The translations under genes were made by a program, and so were the position numbers. The notes beneath the pieces are model-generated. The model had not been told where the DNA came from. It saw only the letters and a list, made by a program, of their open reading frames with translations, and did not search any database. Shown here piece by piece: positions 2,680 to 48,690 of a stretch of DNA of 48,690 nt. This DNA is from Tortispora ganteri (lineage: Eukaryota): the NCBI GenBank assembly GCA_003707115.1, contig PPNB01000007.1, forward strand, positions 310,001 through 358,690, read 5' to 3'. Within the stretch, counting starts at the first letter, position 1. Each line of letters opens with the position of its first letter.

Positions 2680-2750
2680 TCGAATATAAGAGATCTCGCC
2701 GAAGGCGGTGCTCGATGGTATGTATGTGCAATGTATATAGAGAACCAATA

Positions 2751-2760
2751 AGGGTTAGGG
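2751..2760. promoter_or_regulatory. Telomere-like AGGGTTAGGG motif (candidate Tbf1/Myb site) in the TLG2/calmodulin divergent promoter
   Basis: Exact sequence agggttaggg in a 175-bp head-to-head gap. The same 10-mer occurs twice, inverted, at 28786-28822. Confidence 0.35.
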
Positions 2761-2854
2761 TAAAGCTGTATCAATTTCCAACGTCAAAAAACCCTTTGTC
2801 CACCACCTACGCGTCACCTATACACGAGGCATTCTAGCGGCAAAAAAGAGACTA

Positions 2855-3310
2855 ATGGCCGAACAATTAACACAGGAGCAAATCAAAGATTTCAAGGAAG
2901 CATTTGCGCTATTTGATAAAGATGGTGATGGCCATATTACGACCGCGGAACTGGGTGTGGTTATGCGGTCTTTAGGTCAAACACCCACTGAAGCCGACCT
3001 GCAAGATATGATAAACGAGGTCGACCAGGATCACAACGGCACTATTGATTTTCCCGAATTTCTGACTATGATGGCTCGCAAAATGAAAGATAGCGATTCC
3101 GAGGAAGAAATCCGCGAAGCATTCAAGGTTTTCGACAGAGATAATGATGGTTATATATCAGCTGCCGAATTACGCCATGTTATGATGTCTATTGGTGAGC
3201 CCCTGACCGAGGAAGAGGCCGACCAGATGATTCGCGAGGCTGATGCCGATGGCGATGGGCTTATCAATTACGTCGAATTTGCCCATACCTTGTGTGCGAG
3301 CACTAAGTAG
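2855..3310 (+). CDS. CMD1: Calmodulin (intronless, four EF-hands)
   Basis: [48 protein letters not shown] and [12 protein letters not shown]. Confidence 0.96.
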
Positions 3311-11235: not shown

Positions 11236-12681
11236 CTATAAGAGAAAGCTGATTATAAAAGAAAGAACTGAGCCCACAGAGAGCGCGGTGCAGATCACCA
11301 AGCCAATAAGGGATCCGGACACTTCTCGTTCCTGGCCTTGAACTTTCTTTGTAGTGGAGATAATGCAGCTGCTGGACATATGGCCATTAGTCAAGCCATA
11401 TAAGAAATGTGTTGTCATGTATATTAAATCGCTTCCAAGCCAATGAGCGCCCTTACCGTCGATGTTTCCTCCAACAAGAAAGATTACAAAGAGTGGACGG
11501 AACACAGTGTAAGCAACTAGCAAAGCTTCGTTATTTATTGTAATGAAATCATAGGCACATATAACCCGTCCAAGGAAATCGCCGAAATTCCATACAAAAA
11601 TAGCAAAAGGAATGAAAACGTCGTCTCTGAAAGGCGGATTGCTTACGCTAAATGTGCGAGCAGCAATTGGAGGGTATATTAAGGCGAGAACGAAACATAA
11701 AAACAGACAGGACATAAGTGTTGGTATCTTTTTAGCAACAGTGCCGATGTGGATGTGTCTTCGTTTCGGTGATTCAGAGTCTGAGCCGTCATCGAGCGGC
11801 ATAGGAACTCCGGAAAAGCCGTTGTCGTTTTCAATTCCATCCAGGATAAAACGTTTGCGTTTCAAGAGACTGCCGAGTGTACCGAGATTGACCAGACCGG
11901 CAACGATAGCGGAAACAAAGAAAACAATGTAGATTGTACTTGATGCGTTGACTTGGAAGTGAAACTGATCGATATTGGCAGTTTCATGTTTGCCGGTGGT
12001 GTTTCGTAGGCCAAGATGAATGAAAGGAAGAACTTGGACCAATGGAGGAAGGACGCCAGCGATACCTTGGCCCACCATCGTTCCCTGTGAAGATCTAGCG
12101 CCAAAGAGGGCCGCGAGGGCCATGGTGCCGTTTTGAGCGAACGAGTTACCGAATGCAGAGAGGAAAGTGACGGAAATTAAAAAGATGAAATAAGCGACTG
12201 GGGCCTGGTGGATCGGCCAGAGGAGGACAGAGAGTGCGAGAAGTGAGAAGACAGTAAGATTGAGATAGATAGATATGCGGATACGACGACCGTAGTTAGC
12301 GCCGTCGGTGTATTTAAGAAAGACAAACTGCATGATAGTCTGCACGACTGTGAGTATGCTCATTACAGTTGAAGTATGAGCACGATGCAACGCTGGAACA
12401 TCTTGAAACCGTTGGTTAAAGTAAGCAGAGGCGGATAGGAAAGTGTTGAAAGGCCAGAGCATTGCGAGGCCGAGTATAATGAAGGCGATATAGTCTTCAG
12501 TCGATATCTCATCGAAGTCGACAACTTCAGAATCTATATCGCTAGGAACATCAGCAAGTTCAAGACGCCATGTTCCGGAAGGATCACCATCGATACTGAC
12601 ATAGGATTGGGCTCGCTGGTGAGCATTGTTGCCTAGAATAGGCATTGTTTCCGATGTGAAGCGGGCGATTGGCGCGCCCAT
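11236..12681 (-). CDS. FUN26: Equilibrative nucleoside transporter (ENT/SLC29)
   Basis: GLAMLWPFNTFLSA, GQGIAGV, WNFGDFLGR and YGLTNGH; about 11 hydrophobic segments. First ATG at 12681. Confidence 0.85.
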   Translation of the reverse strand: MGAPIARFTSETMPILGNNAHQRAQSYVSIDGDPSGTWRLELADVPSDIDSEVVDFDEISTEDYIAFIILGLAMLWPFNTFLSASAYFNQRFQDVPALHRAHTSTVMSILTVVQTIMQFVFLKYTDGANYGRRIRISIYLNLTVFSLLALSVLLWPIHQAPVAYFIFLISVTFLSAFGNSFAQNGTMALAALFGARSSQGTMVGQGIAGVLPPLVQVLPFIHLGLRNTTGKHETANIDQFHFQVNASSTIYIVFFVSAIVAGLVNLGTLGSLLKRKRFILDGIENDNGFSGVPMPLDDGSDSESPKRRHIHIGTVAKKIPTLMSCLFLCFVLALIYPPIAARTFSVSNPPFRDDVFIPFAIFVWNFGDFLGRVICAYDFITINNEALLVAYTVFRPLFVIFLVGGNIDGKGAHWLGSDLIYMTTHFLYGLTNGHMSSSCIISTTKKVQGQEREVSGSLIGLVICTALSVGSVLSFIISFLL

Positions 12682-13942
12682 TTTCTGAGAGATAAGAAGA
12701 AGGTGCAAAAAGAAGACGGAAAGTCAGGCGCAGAGATAGTCTATAAGCGCACGAATGACGGGAAGAAAAAAGCCCGGTTGATGAGATTAGAAGTGATACA
12801 ATTGCAAAGGGTAGGCGGCTTGTACACTGGCGTATATATATAATAGTGTTAAAGTCAAGAATAGATGGGTGCAATTCCCAATAAGGTTGAGAGTAAATAA
12901 AACCTTGTGTGATTGCGGAAGCGAAGAGATGCCGTAAACTTAGGGTAAATAGGTGTAATTGGGCCTATAAATGACGAGATATGCGAGATCTGTAGTGGAT
13001 AGTGCTAGCAAAAGCAGAAATAGTGTCAATAAGCAGCTAGAGTGATGGGCCCGATCACAATGAGTGGTTATTATCAGCACAGGTAAGGGGGTGCAAGAAA
13101 TAGTTGGGACTTTTGGTTATGACGATAAGGAGAAGAAATGTAGACGGGCACAGGGAACTCTAAGTGGACAATACAGCCAATGAGAGAGCTTAAATTATCG
13201 GGATAAGCGAACAGTGGGATCGATAGAATGTCCTTTTAAAAAAGTAGCAGAATCGCAGTCAGAATAAATAAACGCAAACAGGTTTATTTATATTTTTATA
13301 TATATATTTAGCGAAACTCACGCCTTTGTTATAACAGACTTTGGAAGTGTTCTATGACGTGAACCGACCGCTGAGATGCAGGCGGGTACACGTCATATCT
13401 TACTTGTTTAGAGACGCCCTAGATTAAGATTAGTATAATTTCTTTTCTTCTATTAGTCCTCTTCGGGGCCCGCGGTGATGGAACAAAATAGGCTAAAAGG
13501 CAAAACAATCCGCAATTAATAGAACGTTCGCCGAAGGGCAACGTTAGTTACTTGCTGTCATGCCAATTTCGGCGTGGTCCCATGTTAACAATTAAACCTT
13601 AAATACAATAAAGTTTTATTCATTTTTATTACGATGACGTTTGAACCGATTTTATCACCTTATGCGGCAATCGATAAACACAATGAAACGAAATTTCTCG
13701 GTCTTCTCCGACATTATTGCTTACTTATGTACATTTACGGTATAATAATTAGTTTCACTGTTCACTGATATCGCAGATCAGTTTGTTTTGTGGCCAAAAA
13801 TGGACGCCTTTCATTGATATATTTTTCTCGAATGTCAGTTTTTCCGCCGGTCCCTCTATAGTTGATCTATGCGACCGCATATACATTCCAACAAGATAGC
13901 TAGCATCTACATCCGACAAATTTGTAGCGACCTCGCGGTGTA

Positions 13943-19709: not shown

Positions 19710-21110
19710 TCATTGTTTAGCGTCAGCAGCCTCGCTTTTCGCGGGCTCCTTCTCCGTGTCGGGCTTAGTGGTGGAACTATCTTTGTTGCTGCTTTCTGCT
19801 TGAGCATTATCCCACTTCGCAGGCGGCACATAGCCGTGAAGTCTGCGCCTTCGTGCATTAATAAACCAGTTAGATATTTGAGACATAGAGAGCCCCGTGC
19901 TCTTCATAAGCATAATCTTCTCTGCTTCTGTCGGGTACGGGTGATGGTAGTGTGCAGTAAGCCAGTCGCGTAAAATAGACGTTACAGCACGTGGCAAGTT
20001 ACCACGGCGCTTCGTCTTTTGGTACCCCGGGTTCGCAGCAGCCCCCGGCACATGTAGTACAAATTCTTTGCTATTTGTGCCGTACATGTTACCCACCTGA
20101 GTTGGCATGTATCGACCAGACATGTCGTAGGCGCCAGGATTCATCATAACAGGGCCATTTAGACCGACCATAGGGCCCGAGGGTATGCCTTGCATCATAT
20201 GAGGCATCGGGTAAGCTGTTTGAGGTGCCATACGGGATGGATCCATACCAGGCGGATAGCTCATAGGCGCAGTCTGGTACATGTGTTGCTGATGCGGAGG
20301 GGGAACACCATACTGCGGTATAATATGAGGAGCAGCATTCGGGTGCATTGCTTGAGGAACCGGGTATTGGCCAATATTTTGGTGCATACCAGGGTGTGCA
20401 TATGTCAGTGGCATACCGGGGAGTGGCTGTTGGTACATGAGGTGAGGAGGCGGGGCCTGTCCAGGTGCAGGTGAAGACTGTGTGGGTACTTGTCTAAATG
20501 TAGGCTGCGACATTTGAGCCTGTTGATGTACTCCTGCCTGAACAGGCGGCTGTCCCTGCTGCGGTGGGTGGCCTTGTACCAGAGCTGGGCCAGCGCCCAT
20601 GCTAATTGATGCGCGCTGAGCAGCGTCTGCAGCAGCAGGAGAAGTCCGAAGAGGCTCGTTGCGAGGTACTTGTGAAGAGACATATTGCGATCCATTATTT
20701 ATAGGAGAAGCTAATGTCCGGTTGGCAATGGAAGGGTCGTTCGGTGCATTTAGGGAATGGGGAGGCGTGGTAGAGTGAGGCGGGGAGGAGTGCTGCTCAG
20801 CAGGCACATTAGTGTAAGGGAAAGAAGAAGCCGATTGGTTAGATGCAGATGATATTGCATGTGCTGATTGCGGTTGTAATTCATTAGCCGTTGGCTGCTG
20901 CTGGTTGTCTCTCTGGATGTGGGTTGAGAAAGAGGATCTTGCAGAAGAAGGCATTGAGCTCGGTAATTGGTTCGGGGAACGCGATCCAGAGAATGAAGAT
21001 GTTTGCGTACCGCTGCTGGTAGGAGGCAAATCGTTTCTAGGCTGTTTTAAGGCCGAAAAATCTGGGAATACTTCGTGCAAAGGAGGTAGTTCACGGTACA
21101 TGACTGACAT
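19710..21110 (-). CDS. TALE-class homeodomain transcription factor (Cup9/Tos8/TGIF-like)
   Basis: KRRGNLP..VTSILRDWL..H..HPYPTEAEK..QISNWFINARRR, with a long S/Q/P/M-rich N-terminus. First ATG at 21110. Confidence 0.9.
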   Translation of the reverse strand: MSVMYRELPPLHEVFPDFSALKQPRNDLPPTSSGTQTSSFSGSRSPNQLPSSMPSSARSSFSTHIQRDNQQQPTANELQPQSAHAISSASNQSASSFPYTNVPAEQHSSPPHSTTPPHSLNAPNDPSIANRTLASPINNGSQYVSSQVPRNEPLRTSPAAADAAQRASISMGAGPALVQGHPPQQGQPPVQAGVHQQAQMSQPTFRQVPTQSSPAPGQAPPPHLMYQQPLPGMPLTYAHPGMHQNIGQYPVPQAMHPNAAPHIIPQYGVPPPHQQHMYQTAPMSYPPGMDPSRMAPQTAYPMPHMMQGIPSGPMVGLNGPVMMNPGAYDMSGRYMPTQVGNMYGTNSKEFVLHVPGAAANPGYQKTKRRGNLPRAVTSILRDWLTAHYHHPYPTEAEKIMLMKSTGLSMSQISNWFINARRRRLHGYVPPAKWDNAQAESSNKDSSTTKPDTEKEPAKSEAADAKQ

Positions 21111-22122
21111 TCTTAACAAGATGATAGACTTAATGCCAGGTCCAGAATGAATTTTAATGATGGAAAACAAAAAGTTTTGCCTTATTTAGACTATCTGTTG
21201 AAAATTAGACTAAGGTTTGCAGGTGTTGCGTTAGATGAATAGCGAAACTGCAGAAAATCTTTCAGCGAATAAATCTTTGCGAAATGCGAAATGCACTATG
21301 TGAAGGGAAAGTCGTTGAAAGAATATAAAGAGGTTGAAATTTTGTCGCTGATGTATAGCGAATTTGCGAGAGAGTCAGTTTGAAACGGTAGGAATAGTTG
21401 GTAGTGTGCGTTTTGACTATTCAGCGCAAAGCAAAGAAATGACCTGAGTGAGGTAAGGCAGGCGGATAGTGAGAAAAGAGGTAGAAGATGGCACAGTCTG
21501 AAAGGTGTGACTGTGTGGCGATATGAATAAAATAGAGGATAAACAAGTGAAACAACTATAGAAATGCTATCGAACTGGTGCAGAGAAATACTTGTTTACG
21601 GGGGCAAAAAAAGCGCCAGCAGTTAAGATAAGGATAGGTGTGTATGAGGTGGAGGCGGGCGATAAAAACCAATTGGCAATAAATTAAATCGAGGCCGTGA
21701 GGAAAGTAGCGAAGAAAGGATATGCGAAATCCGTAAGATAGTTTTGCGAAATCGATCGGAGCAGTTCTTTTTGAAAGGCTGCAGATGTGAAGAGAGAGGA
21801 AGGAGATAGAAAGGGAGCAAAAGGAATTGTTTAATTATGCGATTTTGTATGAGGGTAAGGTACGCCAATCCTGTTTGACAGGTTAGAACCTATCAAATTA
21901 GCTTAATTGTATAAAGTTCAGACCAAAAATGAGGTTAAATTGAGCCATTATGCAGTAAGATTTAAGTTAAGTAAAATAACTAAAAACAGAGTTTGTGTAA
22001 TAGCGTTAAAAAATGACCCATAATAAGCTCGTACAGGATTAATTTATCCTGGTTTACTATGTGAGAAAGTCAATTTGTATGGGAAAATTAGGGTGTGCGA
22101 TACTAGGACTAAGGTGAACCGG

Positions 22123-22174
22123 GTTATAGTTCTATTTTGAGTTATAGTTATAGTTCGAAACTATAGTTATAGTT
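22123..22174. repeat. Five TATAGT units, including a small hairpin tatagtt-cga-aactata
   Basis: TATAGT at 22125, 22143, 22149, 22162 and 22168. Confidence 0.7.
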
Positions 22175-25100
22175 TATCAGGTATCGGATCTCAAAATCGA
22201 AAGTAAAGTAGTCAGCTAGGCTAAGCTTGGCGTTTCCATCACACTGTGCGGAAACAGGAAGATTAGCGCATCAAAGAAGCGGACTAGGTGATTGTCAAAA
22301 AAGGCGAGGTCAGCGATGCAAAAAAAGAATATAAGTATTTTTACAAGTCAACAATATTGTTTAAAAGTCAACTGACACGGGTTCATTTCGCTAATAAAAA
22401 GAAAAAAAGACAGGGACTTAGGTGCTATGCGTAATGCAACAGTAGGGACCGGGATAGTTTGTTTGTGATTTTGCCAATCATTAGTTTTAATTTAAATTTT
22501 GCTTTTTTTTTGCGTAGATAATTACGCTTTTTAATTTTGGTTTTTTTTTTAGTGTTTTTCTTTTCATATGAACTTTGAATTACTTCTTTTAACCTATATC
22601 CCGTAAATTAATCATAGAATCGAATGTTTTATATGTGCATCACTATACCTCGTGATATTTTTCCTTCATTATCGAAGTATTTCAGTAATACTGAAATCGG
22701 TTTTGGCTAACTTCTCACGATGTTTTATCTTATAGTAAACCCTGACACCACCCTGTTCAGTTTAATAAAAAAAGCCGCAGTAGTTAGCTCGTCTCTATGT
22801 CAGACCGTCCGCGCACGGGACCTAAGAATTCTCACTTTTTAAAAGACTATCAAATCATTGCCGTCATAAGATCTATTGAACTTCTACAAGAGCAGGGTTT
22901 AAAGTATTTAGTTCCGCGCTTTTCCACTTAGCTGTAACTGACTCTTAAAAGGCATTTTGACAGGAATGTCAAATATGCCGCGAACATGGCGAGAACAGCT
23001 TAGACTTTTGAGATTTTACGCCTTTTTTTCCTTTGAAAAATGTTTCGATCTGGGCCGAGCCTATGTCTAGTCCAAGAAATAAAATATAAAACTGTGAGAG
23101 GGCGTGGCGCGATATAATAAAGGCGGCAATAAGGGAACTGCGAACATTAAGGATTTGTGGCTTATAAAACTGTATTTTTGACCATGCGGTCGCCGCTCAC
23201 CATATCGCCTGACCGTATTGGTACCGGTCAGTTTGCTTAAATTGCTAACAGATACCGTCACTATGTCTTTAAGTTCAGCTATTTTTATACTTATACTGAA
23301 ATTATAAATGGGTATCACAATTTCACATTAGGCATCATTGACCAATGCCTAAAATCAACCAACTTCCACCTCCACCGTCATGCAACCTCCACCTAACCCC
23401 TCCTTCACGAATTTTGTCTCCCGAAGTTAAATGGTAAATGTCCCCATTCCTTAGCTTAATTAAGTATTCATTAAGTCACTCAATTCCTTCCGTTCATTTT
23501 TCATTGTTCGGCTTTAAACTCAATCTTAGATTTAGATTCTCGCCATGAAACCCTATTGCTACAATTAGGCCCCGCCTTCATTTTTAGATTTTTTCCCTTA
23601 TGCCTTTACATTCTGCTCTTACCTTTTATCTTATTATCCCTTTCAATATATCCTTTGCTTATACCGTTAACGAAGTTTCGCAGAACATTAAGATATTAAT
23701 TTTGCTATGAATTTCCTGCTATCGATATCGATTGCGCGGTAAGCTCTACTTAGCTGTTCTTATCATCTTTAGCTATTCGCTTATTAACCCGTTTCCCGTC
23801 CACTTAAAGTATAGGGTAAGGGCTTGTCTATACTCCTTAATTAAACGGTGTTTCAATGCGAACTTTAAAGCCGCAAAAACCATATACGATAATCTATCTT
23901 GATCGGTATCATTAAGACCCTTTTGGTATTCACTTCTAGCTGCCAATGTCCAACCGCTCTAGTGCAGGCATCAGTTTTAAGTACTTTTTCTATTTCAATA
24001 CATTTAGAAAAACAAACAAACAAGCAAACAATTGCTTATAGTGTCCTAGCGCCGAATTATTGTTGCCACTAAGTGCGATCAGTTGTTTTTGGAAAAAGAG
24101 CCAAGCTCTGTCTCCTGTTTCGCTTAGTGAAAAATTCCGCTTCACTTTCAGACATTCCAACCTTTTCTTTATAGTTACACTGGACAACTCTCTATGTCAA
24201 AAGCGCCGTACCATACAGAAACTGCTGTCGTTACGCCCGATAGAACAGATGTTTGATCGTTCCAAATTTTAACACCTTTAGTGGTGAGGTCATTGGCGTC
24301 GGCTTTTCGCCTATCGCAATGCAGGCTAAGACTTGACAAATAACGTCACTTCGAGTTCACCCTTTTTTCTTAAAATTCTAACTACACAGTGTCCATAATC
24401 TGAGTTAAAAACTTACACGGATCGCACTTTCCAGTGACTTCTGTTTTCCTATAGCTATGACGTGCTCGATACTGTGACCTAGATATTCATGGAAACAAAT
24501 AAAACCTGCATAATAGTAGCGATGGGTGTATGAGGAACTATTGGCGTTCTGTGGTTTTAAGGCGAACTTACACGGGCATCTCCTGCAGGAATGATTTTCT
24601 TTAAATTGGCTGTTAATGAAACTTACTTCTTGTTTGCAGGTGAAATAAACGTGACGTTATTTAAAACAACCTTAATAAAGTTAACGTTTTCTTATTGAAG
24701 TATTGTTTCAACTGTATTCTTAACAAAGTTTCGAACGTACGATTAGGTTCAGATACAGACTTTTGCGAGTTTAGTTTCACCGGAATACAGGAAGCTTATC
24801 TCCCGCTAACCATGATAATGACAGTTACTAAATCCATGTCCAAGAATGATATCTATTGTAAGTCGATATTTTTAGCGTACAGCTTTGAAATCAGATTGAT
24901 GTGCTGATAATGTCAGTACCAAATGTCCTTTTCGCTGAATAAATATCGCGGGTCATTCATATTTCCCATAATGGAACCAGAAAACTTGCGATTTGTTGAA
25001 GCCCAACAGTCACGAGAATTAAGTTTCATAAAGCCTGCGTAAATGTTCGTTAGTATTAGACAAGCCGTTCGGCGCCAACACTAAACTCAGCTGAACTAGC

Positions 25101-25425
25101 CATCTTACTTGGATAAACCACCTAGCGCGCGCTAATAGATGTCTGACGTAACGATATACTCGCAATATCAATTGAAGTATAAGGATAAACAGGGAGATAG
25201 ACAACTATTATAATCAATTTGCGGCACGGTGCCTGTATAAGGCAATATTACACGGCATCCAGCCCGGTCAATCGCGACACCGTAACCTTAATGCCTGCTG
25301 TATATATCGAAAGTTTAACCTTAGTATTCTGGTACAAGTGGCGTAACGGTCTACACAATTGCAGATTCTCAAGCACGAACCTATTGAATAATCTAAAATA
25401 GTTCATAAAGGCGGAAGATTGCATC

Positions 25426-25469
25426 AAAAAAAAAAATAAAAATAAAAAATAAAAAAATAAAAAAATAAA
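25426..25469. repeat. A-rich (A5-11 T)n tract
   Basis: Runs of 5-11 A separated by single T, read directly from the sequence. Confidence 0.85.
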
Positions 25470-26027
25470 GTAGTAAAGCTTATTGAGCGGGCGGGTTAAT
25501 TGCAATTGAATTTCCGCGATCGCTAAACCCAGTGAGGTACGAGGCAGATAATAAAAGCGCACGTGGCAAGTTCGTTGTAAACACCTCTAAAGTTTGCATA
25601 CGTCTGCAATTTCGTAATTAATACAGAACCAATGAAACGGCACAAAACTCACTTGATATTTCAATTTTGTAAATAGGCTGCTATGAAAGAACTTACCTTA
25701 GTGCATTAAACCGGGCTGATCGGTCTTTGTTAATGAAACTAATCCGTTATCTGCATCGCATCGCAAACCTTATAGTGTGGTTGAGGGTTAGAATTTGACT
25801 TTGAGCGCCTTGGCTTTTCAAAGTTAGGTTTGCATACTCAGGCACACATTGTGCCATGCCTCCCCTTTTTGCAACCGCGCAGAGATGGTCAGAAGGTCTC
25901 GTTATAGCGGTCAAACGCAGTTCAAATTCAGTAAATAGAGCAACAAATGACCAGATACGTAGCTCTTTGCAATCAGACTATTTTCAAGGCACAGTCCAAT
26001 ATAAGATATAGTACTATCAATTTAACC

Positions 26028-26057
26028 TCGATATCGATATCGCTATCGCTATCGCTA
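26028..26057. repeat. Hexamer microsatellite (TCGATA)2(TCGCTA)3
   Basis: Five consecutive 6-bp units read directly. Confidence 0.8.
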
Positions 26058-27101
26058 CCAACAATTCCACAAATTCAGGAAAACAAACTCTATTAGATTC
26101 TGCAGTTGTTTGTAGTCTTAAGTGGGCGTTGTCATTGCCGTTTTCCCACTAGTTACAACATTCGCAATTACTAACTTAACTGCGAACTATGTAGCGCTAT
26201 ATCCTGCGATCATTAATATGCACTACGATATGTACAATGCTTATACCAAGTAAACTCCGCCAGATATTTTTTGTGCAGTCCTTTCAGATATAAGGCCTGC
26301 AATTTATCTTGATCAAATAAAAATCTAGCATTGTCAGCAAATCAGGATCGTATTACGGCTCTAGATCAACCTTTAAGTTTCTTTAAAAGTTTTTTATTTT
26401 CGGCTCTTTCGCTTCCATTATTGACCGGTAATGTGCTAACGATATCATTCATGATCGATCCGAAAAACTCAATTGCTGTCCCGTGACTAACTGCCCATTG
26501 ATAGAATCAATAAGGGGTATTTCGTCACCCCAGATCTATCGCTAAATGTTCCGCAGTTTCTTGCCTTACAGCGAAGCTGACAATTATCTTAATTGTTGCC
26601 CTCACAACTATCGCTTTCGCTAGGCACAATGCCCACAACGTATCAGCGATCTCATCACGATCCCGCACTTACAGCTAGGTCGTCAATAAATCTCTAAAGC
26701 TTTCCTCAATCTCTACTTAGCTAACGGTACAGTCAAGATGACCTAAACCATACCATACAGTTTAACCACAGTGAGCCGCATTCCCTCCTTGAGTCTCATT
26801 CAACCAGCTCCAACTCCACATCCTCCCCACACCTTGCTATTCGCCTATACATTATAGCACTGCATTCATCTCGCTTTTATACACGCTTCTATCTGAAATA
26901 TCATTCTATAATTCTTATCGCTAATCTGAGCTCTTCTGACTTGTTTCGTTGACTTTGCTCTTCTCTATTGGTCATAGCGTTGTCTTAGCAACCTTACTAC
27001 ACTAGGAACGAAAACAACGCGAACTTACACCCATATAATACATTATTTTGCTGCATTTGTTTGAAATTCCCGCCGCAACAGTATTAGTTCTTTTATTCTA
27101 A

Positions 27102-28700
27102 ATGGTCAACGAAGTATCTTTGGCGAATCTATACAGAGCTATTGACTTGGACTTTAGAGATTCAGCCAATATCATATCAGAAAAGCTCTATTTTCAAGAC
27201 CCTACTGATCTACATGCTTACGCCCGAGCACTCGTTTTAGCTCGTCAAAGCTCATACACCGGAGTTTTTGGCTTACTTTCTAGAATACTAGAAGGCAAAA
27301 GGCCTAAAGAATCTGAAATTTACGCAGGATCGGCCTTCTTGTATGCACAGTCCGCCGTAGCAACAGAATCCGATGTCATAGATTCTAGCACACGACTCCA
27401 GAAGGCTTTAGTATACCTAGACCATGCTTTAACACTCAAAGATTTGCCCGAATACATTTCTGCAGGTTCTGAAGGTAACTCTCGTGTAAAATACGCAGAC
27501 AGGTCTGCATTGCTCACAATGAAAGCTGCTGTTCTGCGAGTCTTACCGCCAGTCCCTTCAGACGACCACGCGAAAAGTAGTCGTATAGAAAACAACGCTA
27601 ACCACTCTATGTTAGCCAGTTGTGCTGCCGATGCTTTTGCAATTGATCCGTTTAACTGGGATGCGCTTAACCTGCTGGCTTTTGCGGGCGCCACCATAAA
27701 CCTAGACCTAATACCTGGCTTTCGATCCAAAAACAAGTTTCTTTATGTGCTTGCCAAAATCGTTTTAATGCTAGCCCGTTACGACCTCTCTGAAGCTTCA
27801 AAGGCAGTAGAAACTTTAAATGATCTAGCTATGCGAACACCTACGTTCATGTGCTTAGTTGGCAGGATCAAATTCGAACTTGTCGACTACAAAGGCAGCT
27901 ACAGAGCATTCAGGATCGCACGAGAACTCGATACTACCCGTGCTAAAGATATGGACTATTTCTCTACACTTTTATGGCATATGAAAAAACATGCAGAGCT
28001 TTCTTTTTTGGCGCATGATCTTATTGACATGGACCGGTCGGCTCCAGAAGGTTGGGTCGCTCTAGGTAACGCTCTGTCTCTTGAGAACGATGAAGAAGGT
28101 TCACGTCTTGGGTTCCAAAGAGCAGCTGGCCTTGCACCTAGGTATTCATACGCTTACACACTTCTTGGTCACGAGTATGTTTCTGCTGAAGATTATGAGT
28201 CTGCTCTTAAGTATTTCAGACTAGCACTTCGATACGACGCTAGACACTATAATGCCTGGTATGGAATAGGCATGGTGTTCCTCAAGCAAGGCAGACCGCA
28301 CGAAGGCTATGAAAACTTGCAAATTGCGGCTAATATAAATCCTTGCAATGCGGTTCTCGAGTGCTGTGTGGGAATGGCTCAGGAGAAACTAAACCAGGAA
28401 GCACTGGCGCTAGCGCATTACTCTAAAGCAGTACGTCTGCAGCCTAAGAGCACCTTAGCTCGCTACAAGAAAAGCCGTGCACTTGTAAGTATAGGAAAAT
28501 ACAATGCGGCCCTGGAAGATTTAAAGATTTTGCAACATTTAGCTACAGAAGAGGCCAATGTGCATTTCCTGCTGGGAACCGTATACCAAAACTTGAAAGA
28601 CTACGCGGCTGCAAGGAGGGAGTTCACGTATGCACTGGGGCTGGATCCGAAAGGAGCGCACCTTATAAAAGAAGCTTTAGAGTCGATGGCTATGAGCTAA
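27102..28700 (+). CDS. CDC27: APC/C TPR subunit Cdc27/Apc3 (compact)
   Basis: MDYFSTLLWH, LSFLAHDL, PEGWVALGN, YAYTLLGHEY, RHYNAWYGIG and ALGLDPKG. Confidence 0.92.
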   Translation: MVNEVSLANLYRAIDLDFRDSANIISEKLYFQDPTDLHAYARALVLARQSSYTGVFGLLSRILEGKRPKESEIYAGSAFLYAQSAVATESDVIDSSTRLQKALVYLDHALTLKDLPEYISAGSEGNSRVKYADRSALLTMKAAVLRVLPPVPSDDHAKSSRIENNANHSMLASCAADAFAIDPFNWDALNLLAFAGATINLDLIPGFRSKNKFLYVLAKIVLMLARYDLSEASKAVETLNDLAMRTPTFMCLVGRIKFELVDYKGSYRAFRIARELDTTRAKDMDYFSTLLWHMKKHAELSFLAHDLIDMDRSAPEGWVALGNALSLENDEEGSRLGFQRAAGLAPRYSYAYTLLGHEYVSAEDYESALKYFRLALRYDARHYNAWYGIGMVFLKQGRPHEGYENLQIAANINPCNAVLECCVGMAQEKLNQEALALAHYSKAVRLQPKSTLARYKKSRALVSIGKYNAALEDLKILQHLATEEANVHFLLGTVYQNLKDYAAARREFTYALGLDPKGAHLIKEALESMAMS

Positions 28701-36378: not shown

Positions 36379-37629
36379 TTATAGAGTAGCAGTTGCGTAA
36401 TAATATCGGTCAATAAGGTATTGAAAGTCTTCGAGAAGAAGTGCTGTCAAAGATCCAAATACCGGTACACGTTTGATCGAGGCGAGGAATTTCATGATAA
36501 TTCGTCGGGAAATATTGCGGTAAAAGGCAGAGCGCACTATCCACCAGACTAGACTGTGTCGTCTGTTACTTAGCTCTTCTGATTCCAGTCGAGACATCTT
36601 GCGTGGGCCCCCGAGGTCTTCATAGTGAGTTTCGAGCATTTTGTACGCTAACAGTTCCAAAGAGAATCCCGCAATCCACGGCCGCCAATCGCGAGGGTCC
36701 CTTCTATATTTTGTTAGAAGTGCAGTGTATATGAGTGGGCGCATTATGTAGGTAATTTCTCCGACCAGACCTATATTTGAGCGGAAGGCGTCGAACCAGG
36801 AAAGGGAGGAGCGAATAGGCTGAGTGTATAGGGAAGAAAGAAGGAACTCTGCGGGCATTATATCTTCCTCAGTGAGTATGCGGGACATTAAGAAGGCATT
36901 TACCTCGTTCACGGGTAGTGGCGGAAGGATAGTACCAGATCGTGGAAGGCGGTACGCTGTATGTGCAGGATCAAGTTCGTCAAACGCGGACTGGAGCGGA
37001 TCTCTCGCGCGAGCAAATGTTTGCTCGAGCTCAGCCGGGTCGTTATCGCGCTGAACGACAAGTTCGGTAGGCAGAGGAGAGAAACCCGTACGAAAGAGCA
37101 AGATAAGTCTGAGTGTGGCCTTGAAGGCTTCCAGGCTGAGTATAGCCTGCCACTTACGTTTGTTATTTCGTGAGGTGGTATACTCTGTCTTAACGGGATT
37201 AGATTCAAGAGCTTTCTCAATGGTCATTTCATAAAGAATCTCAGAAAATCCAATAACAGTTAGGAAGATCGATATGCCTCGGCAAAGGCGGTCCTTTTGA
37301 TAAGTGGCATTGACGTAGCGCGTATGAAGGCTAGGTTTTGGTTTGTATGGGGATTCCGGAAGCGCATCAATCGCTTTAGATATTATTGAGTTATGATACA
37401 AGCCAAGAATGTTTAAAGTCGTGTATAGTCCCTCAGAGACAGTAGCTACATCTTGGAATTGGCCTAGACGCGATACGCGGTTAGTGAGTGTTCAAAAGAA
37501 GCTCTAATGATGTGTTAACGTACCTGGAATTATATAACTGAGAGTTCTTAAGGTAGATTCAATTGAGGCGATTTGGGCACCATTTTCTATCAGCAGCTTT
37601 TCATAGCTATCTAGCCATTTTTTGCTCAT
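36379..37629 (-). CDS. PEX16: Peroxin Pex16; exons 37629-37524 and 37463-36379, 60-nt intron 37464-37523; 396 aa
   Basis: The intron reads GTACGT...CACTAAC...TAG. Splicing gives [29 protein letters not shown]; also [15 protein letters not shown] and WRPW. Confidence 0.9.
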
Positions 37630-38184
37630 TGTGTTGGTGAAGGTGGAGTAGGTGTGGCAGAGGCAAAGGGTATATTAACGGCGGGTCTTCAGGAGTCCCA
37701 CCCCCTAACCGTGATTTGATTTGGATTCCGACAGCAAATCATTTATTGATTCGAACGACATCCAAACGATACGAGAAAATTAAAAAAATTGTGTAGTCTT
37801 TTTTATACTAGTTTAGACCTTCATTGGCACCTTTTTTTTGTCTTGTTGCGTGGAAATCTCGTTTAGATATACCATCTAGTTATTGACATAGACACTGTTT
37901 ATCGGTCAATATGACTATTTCGACTGTGAATCTCGCAAGAATTAATAAATCCAGATATAAACTTGACCAAAAAATAGGCCAGAAGTCACTCCAAACAGTA
38001 AGTAATAATTTTGTGCATGTTCAAAGGATATCTAACTCTAGGTACTCCAATCTCTGTTCCTCACGTCAAACTCCTTACGCCAACATACCGAGGCAGCGAG
38101 GAACGTATTGTCTGCTGGCATCTCGCGTGCTCGTGGTGGTCTAGAACAAGTGATCTAATTGATTTTCTTGGTTTTTATTTAGAG

Positions 38185-38213
38185 AAAAAAAAAAAAAAAA
38201 AAAAAAAAAAAAA
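38185..38213. repeat. Poly(A)29 tract (poly-U on the MRD1 sense strand, just past its stop)
   Basis: 29 consecutive A. Confidence 0.9.
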
Positions 38214-38240: not shown

Positions 38241-40833
38241 CTATTCCATGGACTTCTCTTCGAGGTCAAATTTGCGCTTACCGCTTAGCCTCATAGAAGC
38301 TAACTGCTCGCTCTGTACCTGTTTTTGCACCTTCTTCTGCATCCGCTCGATCTCCTGTTCGGCATCTTCAACTTCAGCGCTCGCATAGCTTATAACAAGT
38401 CGTCGGCCTAATAAATGTGTGCCACTTAGTGATTTCAATGCATGGCTAGCGTCTTTGGTGCCCATGAATTCCACAAACGCAAATCCACGACTTGAAGAAT
38501 CAAATTTCTTAGGTACTCGAACTGTTCGAATTTGACCGTATGCCCCGAACAAGGATCGAACGTCTTTCTTTGTCGCTTCAAATGGCAAATTCTTAATAAG
38601 CAGTTTCGTTCCTTTAGCCGATTTCTTGCGCTGACTGTCGGCAGCCTGCTGCCCGGCACCCATCTCTGATAGATCACTCTTCGCTAATTTCACTTGCAAT
38701 TTGTGTCCTCCAAGAGTAAACCCATCCATAATTTTAGCTGCTTTTAATGCATTTTCACGAGTCTTGAACTCCACGAATCCAAATCCCATGCTCATCGACT
38801 GGCCTGGATTCTTGGGGTTCGGCTTCTTCTTTATTACCGCCGAGAGGTAACCTGATAAAGTGTTAAAAGCATTAACAAGCTCAGAATCTGTAGTCTTAAA
38901 GCTCAGATTCTTAATAAATAGTGACGCATGGTTTCCAATATCGTCTGTATCATCTTCCTGAGCGTCGTCAAATATCTCGCTGACCCCAACTGAAGAAACT
39001 GCCACTTGTGATGATTTCTCCAACACTGGTGCCTTATCTGTAAAAACATCAACAGGAGCTTTCTCTAAATAGATAATAGAGGTTTTGAAACGACGATATG
39101 CAAGTTTAGTAAAGGCAGCTCTAGCGTTCACAGCTTGTGTGAATTCCACAATAGCAACTGTACCGCTAGGCGGCATCAGAACTCTATGAAGCTCGCCGTA
39201 CTCCTCGAACATCCCTTTGATTTCTTCTAATGTTGTTCCATGAGGAAAATTTTTAACGAGAATAGTGGTGTCAGACTTTTTCTTGGAATTTTTAAAAGCG
39301 TTGAGATCAATTCCATGCTGCTCAAAATATGACCGGACATCATTAATTACCTGTGATTCTGCAAGCGCTTGTCTGACAGCAGCGTCAGATGATTCAGGGT
39401 CAAGAATATCTGCTTTTGAAACCGACAGTTTTTCTGCCATTGCTGCAACTACAGCATCAGCACTCATGTAAAGAGAGTTCCATGTGAAATCAGATTTAGC
39501 TGCTTCGGCTTGTCGTTTTAACTCTCTTTGCTTTTTCAATGGAAGATTTTTCAAATCATATTCATCCAGACGATTTGTTCTTTTAGGTTCAGCAGGGATA
39601 ATATGCAAAAGCCTTCCGTGAAAAATTTCTTTGTCTAGGGTTGTGTATGCAGATATGGCATCTTCAGGCTTTTCGTACAAAATATATGCATAGCCTTTAG
39701 ATGTGCCAGACTCAGTGTCAGTTGCAAGGTGTGCCTAAATAGTTAGTGAATGTTGTCGAAAATACATAATTTCGCAATGTAATGATCCTCAGTTATCATA
39801 CTATCTTTAATTCCAGAGATCATCATTTCCTAAGATAAGATGTCCCTATCTGATATTTTCCTCATTGGATCAAAATATGAAGTTAACTTACCTCTTCGAG
39901 CGGGCCAAATTTGGAAAATTGGTTTTCTAAATCTTCTTCTGTAACTGAATATGCAAGGTTTCGAAGAAACAGGCGTTTTGACGATCTTATCTTCTCAATT
40001 GATGCATCTTCCTGCATCTCTTCCAGAGGCTCAACAACCTCTTCCTCACTAGTTTTAACAAGTTCCCGTTCAGGTTTCTGTTCATGTTTCTGTTCAGGTT
40101 CATCTTTATAGTTATTGGTTTCGGCAGTTGGTTCAGGTTTTGGTACTGGATCGGTCTCGGGTATGCGTTTCTGCCTCGTAATAAGCCACTGCTCGTCTGA
40201 AACAGTTTCGTCTTGAGCGATATTGTCATATTCTTCAGTACCTTCATCTAAACCAGCAACCTGTTCCAGTTCTGAAGTATCAGCAGATTTTCTTCGGTTC
40301 ACTTCTTTTGCGACTACATTCAACTCATCAGGTTCAGATTCCGCTAACGGATCAGCTTCAACGGTAGCTGTATGATCCATTTGCACGGTCTCTTCAGGCT
40401 CAAAGAAGTCGTCGTTTGCCCAAGTACGTGCGCTTTTCGCTGGTTTCATTGCTTCAAGGTATTCCTGGAATTTGGGATCACGCCTTCGCTTGCCGTTTTG
40501 GCCTTCAAAACTTGAGCTGTCATTTGATGGTCGTTGTTGTAAATGTTTTGCAGCGCTGCGGCGTGCAAGCTCTGATTGTAAACCAGGGTCCTTGAATGAC
40601 CGCGCAAGTTCGACAGCGATCTTAGATGTGTCTATGAACGATTGATCGAAATATTTGACTGCATTTAAAGCGTCTTCTTCCGATCTGTATCCTACAAAAC
40701 CGAACCCTCGTGCTCTACCGTCTCTGAACTTGACGAGTTTGCAGTCAGTTATCGGTGAGAATTGCTTAAAGTGCTCTTTAAATCGATCTTCGGTGATACG
40801 AGGAGGCACATTCTTCACAATAATGCGAGACAT
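38241..40833 (-). CDS. MRD1: Multiple-RRM pre-rRNA processing factor Mrd1/RBM19; exons 40833-39892 and 39734-38241, 157-nt intron 39735-39891; 811 aa
   Basis: MSRIIVKNVP start. The intron GTAAGT...CACTAAC TATT TAG joins FGPLEE|AHLATD in frame. Also WNSLYM, SMGFGFVEF and THLLGRRLV. Confidence 0.94.
39783..39872 (-). ncRNA. SNR64: Intronic box C/D snoRNA, snR64/SNORD74 type (predicted guide for the 25S Cm2337-equivalent)
   Basis: Terminal stem TGATCC/GGATCA; box C ATGAGGA (39865-39859); guide AGATAGGGACA (39851-39841); D' CTTA; C' ATGATGA; D CTGA (39792-39789). The guide pairs with conserved LSU UGUCCCUAUCU. Confidence 0.88.
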
Positions 40834-41025: not shown

Positions 41026-41394
41026 ATGAATTCCGAAGGTAAGTCGATGGCGAGTTAGGAATTTGAACAGAGTTATATTAACTATAGTTGATATTCGGGC
41101 GCAGGATGTGGTAAGTAGACAGCAACATCTTTAAACATTAAACCCTTTCTAACGAATCAGTCGGAGCCAGTACTTGCCGAGGTTATAAGTCTCAGCAACA
41201 ATGCTATAAGGCAGTATACAGTAGAGAAAGATATTGCGAAAGCTATTAAACAAGGGCTGGACCTTAAATTTGGAGGTCCGTGGCATGTTATTGTGGGCAA
41301 AGAGTTCGGCAGCTTTGTCACCCACGAATCTGGCTATTTCGTATACTTCATACTGGAATCTAAAGCATTCCTTGTATTTAAAACTGCCTCTTAA
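41026..41394 (+). CDS. DYN2: Dynein light chain LC8; exons 41026-41038, 41088-41110, 41161-41394; 89 aa
   Basis: Two GTAAGT..AG introns (49 and 50 nt). The product MNSEVDIRAQDVSE...EKDIAKAIK..LD.KFG.PWHVIVGKEFGSFVTHE..F..F...FLVFKTAS is a typical LC8. Confidence 0.93.
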
Positions 41395-45559: not shown

Positions 45560-46546
45560 ATGTTGCGAGGAATTAACGTACAATTGCCGAAATTGGCCAG
45601 GAATATGTCAGCTAGCACTATTGCGAGAGATGTTAAACGTGTAGGTGTGCTTGGAGCAGGTCAAATGGTAAGTAAACTACAAGCGAACATATTATCTCGG
45701 AGATATACCGGAGCAATCGATCTAACAAACTAGGGACTTGGAATAGCTTTAGTTGCTGCTAATAAAGCTGGTCTACCTGTAACTTTAGTAGACAGCTCCG
45801 AAAAGAGTCTTGAGAAAGGATTGGGATTCATGGACAAGCTGCTAGCGAAAGATGTTTCTAAATCGAAGATCACGCAGGAACAAGCTGATGCCATCAAAGG
45901 ACGCGTGAAAGGAACTACCAACTTTGAGGATATCGCTGAAGCTGATTTTATTATTGAGGCAGTACCAGAGATACCTTCTTTGAAAACGGAGATCTTCGGT
46001 AAGTTAGCTCAAATATGTTCAAAGGATGCTATTCTGGCTACAAATACGTCGTCAATTTCGATTACGAAAATTGCAGCTGCGGCAGTTGGAGCTGAAGATC
46101 GTGTAGTTTCTACGCATTTTATGAACCCTGTTCCTGTTCAGCCCGGTGTTGAGATTATCACTGGACTGCAGACGTCCGAGCAGACCCTGAACACCGCACT
46201 AGATCTTATCAGGAAGATGAGCAAGATTCCATCTGTTTCGCGCGATTCGCCTGGCTTTTTGGCAAACCGCATCCTTATGCCATATATCAACGAGGCTATT
46301 ATGTGTTTAGAGAATGGTATTGGTACCAAGGAGGATATCGATAGCATTATGAAGAATGGATGTGCGATGCCGATGGGCCCACTAGCGCTTGCAGACTTTA
46401 TTGGTCTCGACACCTGTCTAGCGATCATGAAAGTCCTGCACGAGAACACCGGAGATAGCAAGTACAGACCAGCTGTTCTGCTTCAAAACATGGTTGATGC
46501 TAAATGGTACGGCAAGAAGAGTGGCAAAGGATTCTACGATTACTAA
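45560..46546 (+). CDS. Mitochondrial 3-hydroxybutyryl/3-hydroxyacyl-CoA dehydrogenase; exons 45560-45667 and 45734-46546, 66-nt intron; 306 aa
   Basis: The intron GTAAGT...TCTAAC AAAC TAG restores the Rossmann motif GVLGAGQM|GLGIA. Also TNTSS, HFMNPVP and PMGPL; presequence MLRGINVQLPKLARN. Confidence 0.92.
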
Positions 46547-46942
46547 ACAAGAATTGACCGAGCCGAGCCGTGTATATCTCTTCCGATTAGGTTGCCGGGC
46601 TATTGCCTAGGCTAAAATTACACTGCCTTTCAGTAATAAACTCTATCTATTTATTATTGCTACTAGGGCCCAGAAACTTCTTAGCCCACCGTAAGCTGAC
46701 ATAAGCTGAAACCGGGTAACTATATATTCACCTTTATTATATTATATAGTTGCACAGTATAAAGGGAGCTTATTCAACAACCACTAGATTCTCTTTAAAC
46801 AAATAAACTATCATCTTCCGATTAAAGCGCCTTCTTAACTTGAAGGTATATTAAATTAATCAGAATTACTTTTTGGGCGCGATTTAGGCCTAATCGATAT
46901 ATCAACAGGCTCGCATTAGCATCTCTATCAACAATATCTCCC

Positions 46943-47929
46943 ATGGTTAGCGAAACTGGACGACACCACAAGGTCGTGATTATTGGATCCGGCCCCGCCG
47001 CACACACTGCTGCGATTTATCTCGCACGTGCAGAACTGAAACCTGTACTTTTCGAAGGCATGCTTGCCAACGATATTGCCGCCGGAGGTCAACTAACTAC
47101 TACAACTGAAGTCGAAAACTTCCCTGGTTTCCCTGACGGTATTACGGGCTCAAAACTCATGGAGAATATGCGTGAGCAGAGCTCCAAATTCGGTACTGAA
47201 ATTATTACAGAAACTGTCGCGAAGGTAGACTTGTCTGAACGTCCTTTCAAGTTCTGGACAGAATGGAATGAAGAAGAGCCGCCACAGACCGCTGATGTAA
47301 TAATACTGGCCACAGGTGCTGCTGCTAAGCGCCTCCACATCCCTGGAGAAGAAACATACTGGCAAAATGGCGTCTCGGCTTGTGCTGTTTGCGATGGCGC
47401 TGTCCCAATCTTTCGCAATAAACCGCTAGTTGTTGTCGGAGGCGGAGATTCCGCTGCCGAAGAAGCTATGTTCCTCACTAAATACGGATCTAAAGTATAC
47501 GTCTTGGTACGCCGTGATGTTCTCAGAGCCTCTACTATCATGTCGAAGAGACTTCTTGCCAATCCTAAAGTTGAAGTGCTTTTCAACAAAGCTCCTGTCG
47601 AAGTTAAGGGTGAAGACGGACTCATGACTACCCTCACCATCAAGGACACAAAAACCGGTGAAGTTTCTGACCTCCAAGCGAACGGCCTTTTCTACGCAAT
47701 TGGACACGCTCCAGCCACCAAAATAGTTACTGGACAAATCGAACTTGATGACCAAGGCTATGTCATCACCAAACCTGGCACTGCCCAGACCTCTGTTAAA
47801 GGTGTTTTCGCTGCAGGCGATGTTCAAGACAAGAAGTACCGCCAAGCTATTACTTCTGCAGGTTCTGGCTGTATGGCTGCCCTAGAAGCTGAACATCTGC
47901 TCAGCGAAGAGTCGGAGTTATTAGGGTAA
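46943..47929 (+). CDS. TRR1: Low-Mr thioredoxin reductase (unspliced isoform)
   Basis: [28 protein letters not shown], redox motif CAVC, GGGDSA and [14 protein letters not shown]. Confidence 0.98.
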
Positions 47930-48001
47930 GTCTTCTTTCTGTGTGGTTAGTAATCTAGCTGCGCTGTTGTCACCGTTCCATTGTTAACATTGCCTGTATA
48001 G
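47926..48001 (+). other. Candidate 76-nt alternative intron overlapping the TRR1 stop codon; terminal coding exon 48002-48017 gives ...LLGLTKL*
   Basis: Donor GTAAGT at 47926 contains the TAA stop; branch GTTAAC at 47983-47988; acceptor TAG at 47999-48001. Confidence 0.65.
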
Positions 48002-48579
48002 TCTTACCAAGTTATAGAACCCTTTAAAGCGTTATGCGTATGTTATTTCTTTTTTAATCACATTCTAAATAAACAGTCGTAGCCTTAAGTATTCTTCTAA
48101 AACTAACCACATCAACTAGTTAGTCAAGACATATAACGCAACAACAGGATTACAGTCAGACCACTAAATCTGTGCTAAAAATATTCAGGTATTAACAAAA
48201 GCATAGTGGTATCCTTCGAGGTAACCGACATAGGAGTGTCTTGAAGACGTCCATAGGTATTCTTAAAAAAACCTTATATAAGATAAGCTCCAACTGCCTT
48301 AGTTGTTGTCAGATTTTTAAGTTTGACGTGTCTGCGCGCCAGAGGATGGGATACTAGCCGCATATCCCCACCTCATTTAATGCACCTTCACATCCGTCGC
48401 GGCTCATGTACTACATGGTAAAGCCCGCCAAAACCAAGCAATCAACCAGTGAAATCCGGATTGAGCGTTCTGATTGTACGGTTCCAGAGCATTTAGTGCA
48501 ATGGCCACAGAAGTTATCCGCTTCGTGCGTCCGGAACACTAAAAGCACTGAAGGCAGGTGTCTCAGGACTCCCTGCAAG

Positions 48580-48625
48580 GTAAGGTGTCTTTGGCGCTTG
48601 TTCCGTAGCTGACGCCTATTTTTAG
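48580..48625 (+). other. Candidate 46-nt intron of an unidentified transcript
   Basis: AAG|GTAAGG...GCTGAC GCCTATTTT TAG. Size and spacing resemble the DYN2 introns. Confidence 0.35.
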
Positions 48626-48690
48626 GCTGATTTTATCTGCTCCCGCCTTAACCCATTATTCAACTCACTAGTCTGCACATGAGGCATCGC

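Follow-up and report, generated by a model that had tools for sequence, protein, structure and literature searches.

A candidate terminal intron over the stop codon of Tortispora ganteri TRR1 and a possible peroxisomal isoform of thioredoxin reductase

Can a single yeast gene supply thioredoxin reductase to peroxisomes as well as to the cytosol by splicing away its own stop codon? This question is raised by TRR1 of Tortispora ganteri, which lies in the 48,690-nucleotide (nt) stretch of DNA analyzed here (assembly GCA_003707115.1, contig PPNB01000007.1, positions 310,001 to 358,690 of the forward strand; hereafter the window, with all coordinates counted from its first letter). The TAA stop codon of this gene is contained in a consensus 5' splice site, and the signals of a short intron follow it. 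We propose that a genuine, spliceable terminal intron may be present at this position. The unspliced mRNA would encode the canonical cytosolic enzyme, ending in ...SELLG where yeast Trr1 proteins usually end, and the spliced mRNA would exchange the stop codon for L-T-K-L, a weak and non-canonical type 1 peroxisomal targeting signal (PTS1) behind non-polar residues. Through this -TKL, a small share of the FAD-bound Trr1 dimer would be carried into peroxisomes by Pex5. The mechanism would be the same as that of the MDH gene of Lipomyces, Yarrowia and Aspergillus, with a new enzyme. That the TRR1 terminal intron is in use and uncovers a weak PTS1, which would bring a new client to the MDH-type mechanism, is in our view a serious possibility whose probability falls somewhat below even; this estimate weighs how rare the full combination is against a low prior expectation for a peroxisomal thioredoxin reductase and the unspliced gene model of a sister species. 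The fuller proposition, that one TRR1 gene actually supplies a peroxisomal thioredoxin reductase by splicing this stop-overlapping intron and exposing -TKL, appears doubtful to us.

TRR1 and the layout of its 3' end

The product of the unspliced open reading frame (ORF) matched the Pfam families Pyr_redox_2 (PF07992, E = 2.4e-47) and Pyr_redox (PF00070, E = 1.3e-17), and was 72–95% identical to fungal Trr1 proteins. Among the 8,000 candidates scored, the closest match was a protein of Tortispora caseinolytica (P0001; 95% identity, 328 amino acids (aa)), and the next-best matches, from Dipodascopsis and Lipomyces, reached at most 81% identity. When 22 sequences were aligned, the motifs GSGPAA, CAVC and GGGDSA fell on invariant columns, and the cysteines of the redox-active CxxC (C147 and C150 of CAVC) were invariant in 22 of 22. 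By both fold and motifs, the predicted product is a low-molecular-weight (low-Mr) NADPH thioredoxin reductase (Trr1/TrxB). An AlphaFold2 model had a mean pLDDT (predicted local distance difference test score) of 78.2 and contained a final helix at residues 305–327, with a pLDDT of 74 in the final block.

The original prediction had placed the TRR1 stop codon inside a 5' splice site, and this is correct to the base: the final codons read TTA GGG TAA (47921..47929), with the TAA within GTAAGT. It had also held that the removal of 76 nt turns the end ...SELLG into ...SELLGLTKL, which a script reproduced, the protein being lengthened from 328 to 332 aa and closed by a new TAG. Because a phase-2 GTAAGT intron always puts TAA in frame, the overlap of stop and splice site follows from the hexamer and is no separate oddity. 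The region around a downstream AATAAA (48068..48073) is likely to be the site of 3'-end formation. Searched against Rfam and for tRNAs, the window and its part 47800..48690 yielded one sub-threshold match to a bacterial small RNA and no tRNA. The coordinates of these features are given in Table 1, together with those of the reference introns described below.

Table 1. Positions of TRR1, of the elements at its 3' end and of the introns used as a local splice reference
Feature	Position	Strand	Details
TRR1 coding sequence, unspliced reading	46943..47929	+	328 aa, C-terminus ...SELLG, TAA stop 47927..47929; ORF list
In-frame open stretch upstream of TRR1 ATG	46844..46942	+	33 codons, R-rich, no D or E, no ATG
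5' splice site consensus GTAAGT	47926..47931	+	exon ...AGG/GTAAGT; covers stop TAA 47927..47929; phase 2
Candidate terminal intron	47926..48001	+	76 nt, GC content 0.42; sequence signals
Branch-like TGTTAAC	47982..47988	+	branch A 47987, 14 nt upstream of 3' AG
3' splice site TAG (within TATAG)	47999..48001	+	first AG past branch
Candidate tail exon T CTT ACC AAG TTA TAG	48002..48017	+	L-T-K-L after Gly328, stop TAG 48015..48017
AATAAA	48068..48073	+	in 29% GC stretch 48018..48100; TATGT and T-run upstream; putative 3'-end formation region
Distal alternative	48103..48123	+	CTAAC 48103..48107, CTAG 3' site ending 48119, then T TAG; script
Opposite-strand intron-like pattern	47939..48007	-	GTAAGA...TTACTAAC...CAG, 69 nt; pattern scan
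HADH intron	45668..45733	+	joins GAGQM/GLGIA; Pfam 3HCDH_N match in exon 2, from profile position 11
DYN2 intron 1	41039..41087	+	49 nt; branch TATTAAC, 6 nt from AG
DYN2 intron 2	41111..41160	+	50 nt; frame and dynein-light-chain match
MRD1-like six-RRM gene intron	39891..39735	-	ORF joining and Pfam
PEX16 intron	37523..37464	-	60 nt, GTACGT; Pex16 profile positions 2–32 in exon 1, 30–346 in exon 2
Probable small-gene intron	37998..38041	+	44 nt; GTAAGT/ATCTAAC/CTAG

Splice rules were taken from the six introns established in the window itself. Their 5' sites were GTAAGT in five cases and GTACGT in one, and their branches were CTAAC in five and TTAAC in one (DYN2 intron 1); the branch A lay 6–17 nt from the AG, the lengths were 44–157 nt, and the GC contents were 0.30–0.43. 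The signals of the candidate TRR1 intron match the splice signals of this genome, as its 5' site, branch variant, 3' site, spacing and length all lie within the ranges of these six introns. The GC content of the 76 nt past the TRR1 stop was 0.42, compared with 0.34 ± 0.085 past 24 other stops, five of which reached at least 0.42.

Some of these introns belong to genes of separate interest. For DYN2, the reading frame and a dynein-light-chain match from profile position 10 were compatible only with a structure of two introns and a 23-nt exon; this DYN2-like dynein light chain gene (41026..41394, +) has its 23-nt micro-exon at 41088..41110, between the two introns. The 44-nt intron lies in a probable unannotated small gene (37912..38150, +) of approximately 66 aa, for which no Pfam match was found and whose ATG closes a 401-nt ATG-free gap. 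The ORF-joining scan also returned an "intron" at calmodulin (2718..2875), which was rejected as false because the calmodulin ORF carries a complete N-terminus of its own.

As a targeting signal, TKL lies outside the classical [SAC][KRH][LM] set. It is nevertheless listed among the previously established plant PTS1 tripeptides in Table 1 of PMC9542071, and the passages of that paper on PTS1 context state that non-polar residues at positions –4 to –6 enhance targeting and that acidic ones inhibit it. At these positions, the spliced Trr1 tail would carry L, G and L. In zebrafish, the -TKL of Urad is described as a weak yet functional PTS1 (in the relevant section of PMC8919083), and for the -TKL of human HPGDS, PMC6770196 gives an apparent affinity for Pex5 of 1.79, compared with 5.11 for SKL. 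A literature search for a fungal assay of TKL found none. The proposal that TKL is a non-canonical PTS1 gains from the plant list, from Urad and from the Pex5 affinity, and loses from a prediction for HPGDS that is given in the next section. We infer that TKL could function with the Pex5 of T. ganteri itself.

The window also contains PEX16 (36379..37674, –), and the lineage therefore has peroxisomes; this peroxin, which S. cerevisiae is not known to possess, has been retained here. An ORF at 27102..28700, which was considered as PEX5, was identified as CDC27/APC3.

Chance, relatives and competing explanations

The explanation that best survives beside the proposed one is that the arrangement arose by chance: TRR1 would end at its TAA, the GT, TTAAC and TAG would be fortuitous, and at most a low-level, non-functional protointron with a meaningless TKL would result. 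We regard this as a substantial possibility, clearly short of an even one. Several observations favor it or otherwise weigh against a peroxisomal isoform, beginning with the ease with which the signals arise. On both strands of the window, GTAAGT occurred 26 times (21.5 ± 4.8 in Markov-1 shuffles), and it was followed by [CT]TAAC and YAG within 250 nt in nine cases (4.9 ± 2.2 in shuffles, a count within about 2 standard deviations); these nine comprised five of the window introns, the TRR1 candidate and three sites in unannotated stretches. When 30,000 random 3' flanks were simulated behind GTAAGT, 21% gained the same full signals, and 9.2% gained them under tighter limits (length at most 160 nt, branch to AG at most 20 nt), so that the downstream signals raise the likelihood by no more than four- to ten-fold. 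Approximately 4.6 full-signal cases are thus expected by chance among the approximately 20 non-intron GTAAGT of the window, and the TRR1 candidate could therefore be one of them. Its branch, TTAAC, is the minority variant of the window. On the opposite strand, a similar pattern (47939..48007), beside which the ORF list contains no minus-strand ORF of at least 40 aa, illustrates how easily such arrangements appear, as does the false calmodulin intron produced by ORF joining. Moreover, protointrons have reportedly been recorded in the untranslated regions of yeast genes (Talkish 2019).

The relatives of TRR1 point in the same direction. In the alignment of 22 sequences, the end of the unspliced ORF coincides with the usual end of yeast Trr1 proteins, so that no C-terminal extension is needed. 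The annotated protein of T. caseinolytica, the only close relative compared, ends in ...SELSG at the same Gly (328 aa), which corresponds to the unspliced form. A C-terminus of the form [SACPT][KRH][LMIF] was found in none of the 120 closest TRR1 homologues. A search with the last 100 aa for Tortispora Trr1 C-termini in transcript-derived or fragmentary sequences gave a best match of 79% identity and none from the genus.

Further points on the same side concern the tail and the enzyme. The T at position –3 is not in the classical [SAC] set, the spliced tail would carry E at positions –8, –10 and –11, and the predictor applied in PMC6770196 classed the -TKL of HPGDS as "not targeted". A peroxisomal thioredoxin reductase would have no use unless a thioredoxin were also present in peroxisomes. 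Neither Trr1 nor the word "thioredoxin" appears in the main texts of the yeast peroxisome proteome study (PMC9513677) and of a Histoplasma proteome paper. According to the passages of PMC10245115 on mammals, thioredoxin reductase has never been found in mammalian peroxisomes and is missing from their proteomes.

Against a fortuitous origin stands the rarity of the whole. A GTAAGT falling exactly on a stop codon is expected in about 0.5% of genes, as estimated from the share of TAA among 24 stops (11) and approximate base frequencies. Among 6,225 simulated tails, 0.34% ended in [SAC][KRH][LM], 0.95% in [SACPT][KRH][LMIF] and 1.33% in one of the 41 tripeptides of the plant list. The whole combination of a stop in GTAAGT, downstream signals and a PTS1-like tail would arise by chance at about 1e-5 per gene, a rarity that is tempered by the post hoc choice of the feature from the whole window. 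In addition, none of the three non-intron GTAAGT on the sense strand of coding sequences in the window (28485, 33231 and 45999) is followed by branch and AG signals. We would also expect splicing at a perfect U1 match (G/GTAAGT) with a usable branch and AG in an mRNA that is normally well expressed, and the loss of such a site were it harmful.

A second explanation accepts the intron and denies the targeting. The intron would be real and spliced, perhaps efficiently, and the true end of the protein would be ...LLGLTKL; the four added residues would be neutral and the protein would stay cytosolic, with the intron aiding expression or persisting as a relic. We consider this unlikely. In its favor, the signals equal those of the constitutive introns of the window, TKL is weak at best, and four-codon terminal exons would be easily overlooked in annotation, which would explain the unspliced T. 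caseinolytica model. A related layout was found in a metagenome scan for TRR1 relatives, which returned 80 loci with 55–74% identity, none of them close. A script was applied to 31 of these loci (L001–L024, L026, L037, L047, L055, L061, L069 and L074), the last six of which were hand-picked and mostly of higher identity (64–74%); 30 reached a stop codon, one ran off its contig, and GTAAGT lay over the stop in one (L002). In this fungal thioredoxin reductase gene (L002 1900..2000, 61% identity), the stop lies within CT/GTAAGT, which is followed by CTGAC and TTGCAG, so that this window may not be the only place where a terminal intron overlaps the stop of a thioredoxin reductase gene. By inspection, splicing of L002 would add a short tail that is not a PTS1. 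However, in the absence of a targeting role, only about one real intron in a hundred would yield a PTS1-like tail such as that of TRR1. Introns at the very 3' end of genes are also rare in yeasts, which speaks against a neutral intron at this position. A 5' bias of introns has been documented (PMC5499181).

The third explanation, in which the 5' site pairs with the CTAAC at 48103 and the AG at 48119 and only the 3' untranslated region differs, is very improbable: a script joining these sites (194-nt intron) gave GGT-TAG and the identical 328-aa protein ending in ...SELLG, CTAAC is the majority branch (five of six window introns), and the proximal 3' site of an MDH gene also reproduces the retained protein (in the passages of PMC7491326 cited below), but the AATAAA at 48068 and the AT-rich, terminator-like stretch at 48018..48100 (29% GC) precede the distal branch, so that the majority of transcripts are likely to stop short of it, the first usable pair of branch and AG lies upstream, at 48001, and an in-frame stop directly past the junction has a chance of approximately 5%.

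Relation to known dual-targeted enzymes

The original prediction had presented the stop-overlapping TRR1 intron as a candidate for an undescribed system. This novelty does not hold, as the passages on MDH in PMC7491326 already describe the same layout. In Lipomyces starkeyi, retention of the final MDH intron leads to a likely cytosolic protein, and splicing leads to a PTS1 (Hurtig et al. 2020, PMC7491326, in the same passages); in Aspergillus fumigatus, use of the proximal 3' site reproduces the retained protein, altering only a wobble base and the stop codon (PMC7491326, likewise). The MDH gene of Yarrowia lipolytica uses two 3' sites that are 4 nt apart (Kabran 2012, PMC3372373, as cited in PMC7491326). 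TRR1 resembles these genes in being a single gene with its final intron at the extreme 3' end, retention and splicing of which would correspond to cytosol and PTS1, and in having one 3' site, here the distal one, that recreates the retained protein; the layout again occurs in early-branching Saccharomycotina. It differs from MDH in that the enzyme is a thioredoxin reductase, in that the tail has four residues and ends in the non-canonical TKL, and in that the TRR1 system is predicted from sequence. We suppose that both TRR1 isoforms would coexist.

Cryptic PTS1 motifs of GAPDH and PGK are said to be exposed by alternative splicing or read-through in Ustilago and Aspergillus (reportedly described by Freitag in 2012). 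As in those cases, a cytosolic housekeeping enzyme would gain a minor peroxisomal isoform through a change at the C-terminus that is made at the RNA level. Unlike TRR1, however, the GAPDH and PGK cases are conserved in many fungi and experimentally verified. Also in contrast to the read-through cases, read-through of the TRR1 TAA, when carried out by script, yields VFFLCG followed by a stop, which is not a PTS1.

Two other enzymes are closer to TRR1 in their chemistry. Arabidopsis GR1 is partly peroxisomal and ends in -TNL (Kataya & Reumann 2010, as summarized in PMC3798809), and S. cerevisiae Glr1 is partly peroxisomal through Pex5, to whose N-terminal half it binds although it has no PTS1 (main text of PMC9513677). 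Like Trr1, both are pyridine-nucleotide disulfide oxidoreductases, and they are divided among the cytosol, another organelle and peroxisomes. GR1 shares with the candidate tail a Thr at position –3 of a weak PTS1, and Glr1 shares the use of one gene for several compartments. However, the signal of GR1 is constitutive rather than exposed by splicing, and neither GR1 nor Glr1 is a thioredoxin reductase.

Within the same enzyme family, comparison can be made with TRR1/TRR2 of S. cerevisiae and with the single-gene yeasts that have an upstream ATG (E. gossypii P0064 and K. marxianus P0116), none of which has a PTS1. As the N-terminal extensions of P0064 and P0116 in the alignment demonstrate, a presequence can be carried by a single TRR gene. 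In contrast to these two, the upstream in-frame stretch of the T. ganteri gene contains no ATG. This bears on a further claim of the original prediction, in which a 5' extension was added to the PTS1 so that one gene could serve the cytosol, peroxisomes and mitochondria. The 33-codon open frame has no ATG, the script counted none in the 396 nt upstream of TRR1, and ATG-free stretches precede other genes of the window as well. The ATG-free gap before the TRR1 start spans 439 nt (46504–46943), and similar gaps end at other start codons (26738–27102 and 37510–37911; on the minus strand, 21108–21948 and 12679–13396); the gap is therefore no evidence for an upstream TRR1 start. The three-compartment scheme is unsupported, as is the proposed switch by glucose, oleate and H2O2. 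As a separate observation, the longest ATG-free gaps of the window stop exactly at gene start codons, which suggests that long leaders purged of upstream ATGs are a general trait of this genome.

A literature search for a peroxisomal thioredoxin reductase, in which supplements were not covered, found none reported, and "thioredoxin" is missing from the main text of two reviews on dual targeting. In mammals, glutathione reductase has likewise never been found in peroxisomes, and the reduction of PRDX5 there is unclear (in the passages of PMC10245115 on this subject); for S. cerevisiae, a recent peroxisomal assignment exists for Glr1 alone, according to the main text of PMC9513677. If the proposed use of the intron is true, the TRR1 product would be, for any organism, the first isoform of thioredoxin reductase to be placed in the peroxisomal matrix, and yeast peroxisomes would by implication contain a thioredoxin system driven by NADPH. 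Its physiological role would touch the open question of how peroxisomal protein thiols and peroxiredoxins stay reduced, into which an isoform with a splice-exposed PTS1 would be a testable entry. The few clients of cryptic peroxisomal targeting (MDH, GND, GAPDH and PGK) would also be joined by a redox enzyme. If the arrangement is instead due to chance, it would serve as a caution for intron-containing yeasts, in which a phase-2 GTAAGT brings an in-frame TAA and about one fifth of random GTAAGT have full signals.

Other features of the window

Between a homeobox gene and CDC27, a region of approximately 6 kb (21110..27100) contains no ORF of at least 110 aa, no Pfam match and two short repeats only. 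Its GC content is 0.36–0.40, compared with about 0.44 elsewhere, and the region may be centromere-like or non-coding in some other way. An unbroken A-run of about 35 nt occupies intergenic positions 38180..38213, downstream of the MRD1-like gene.

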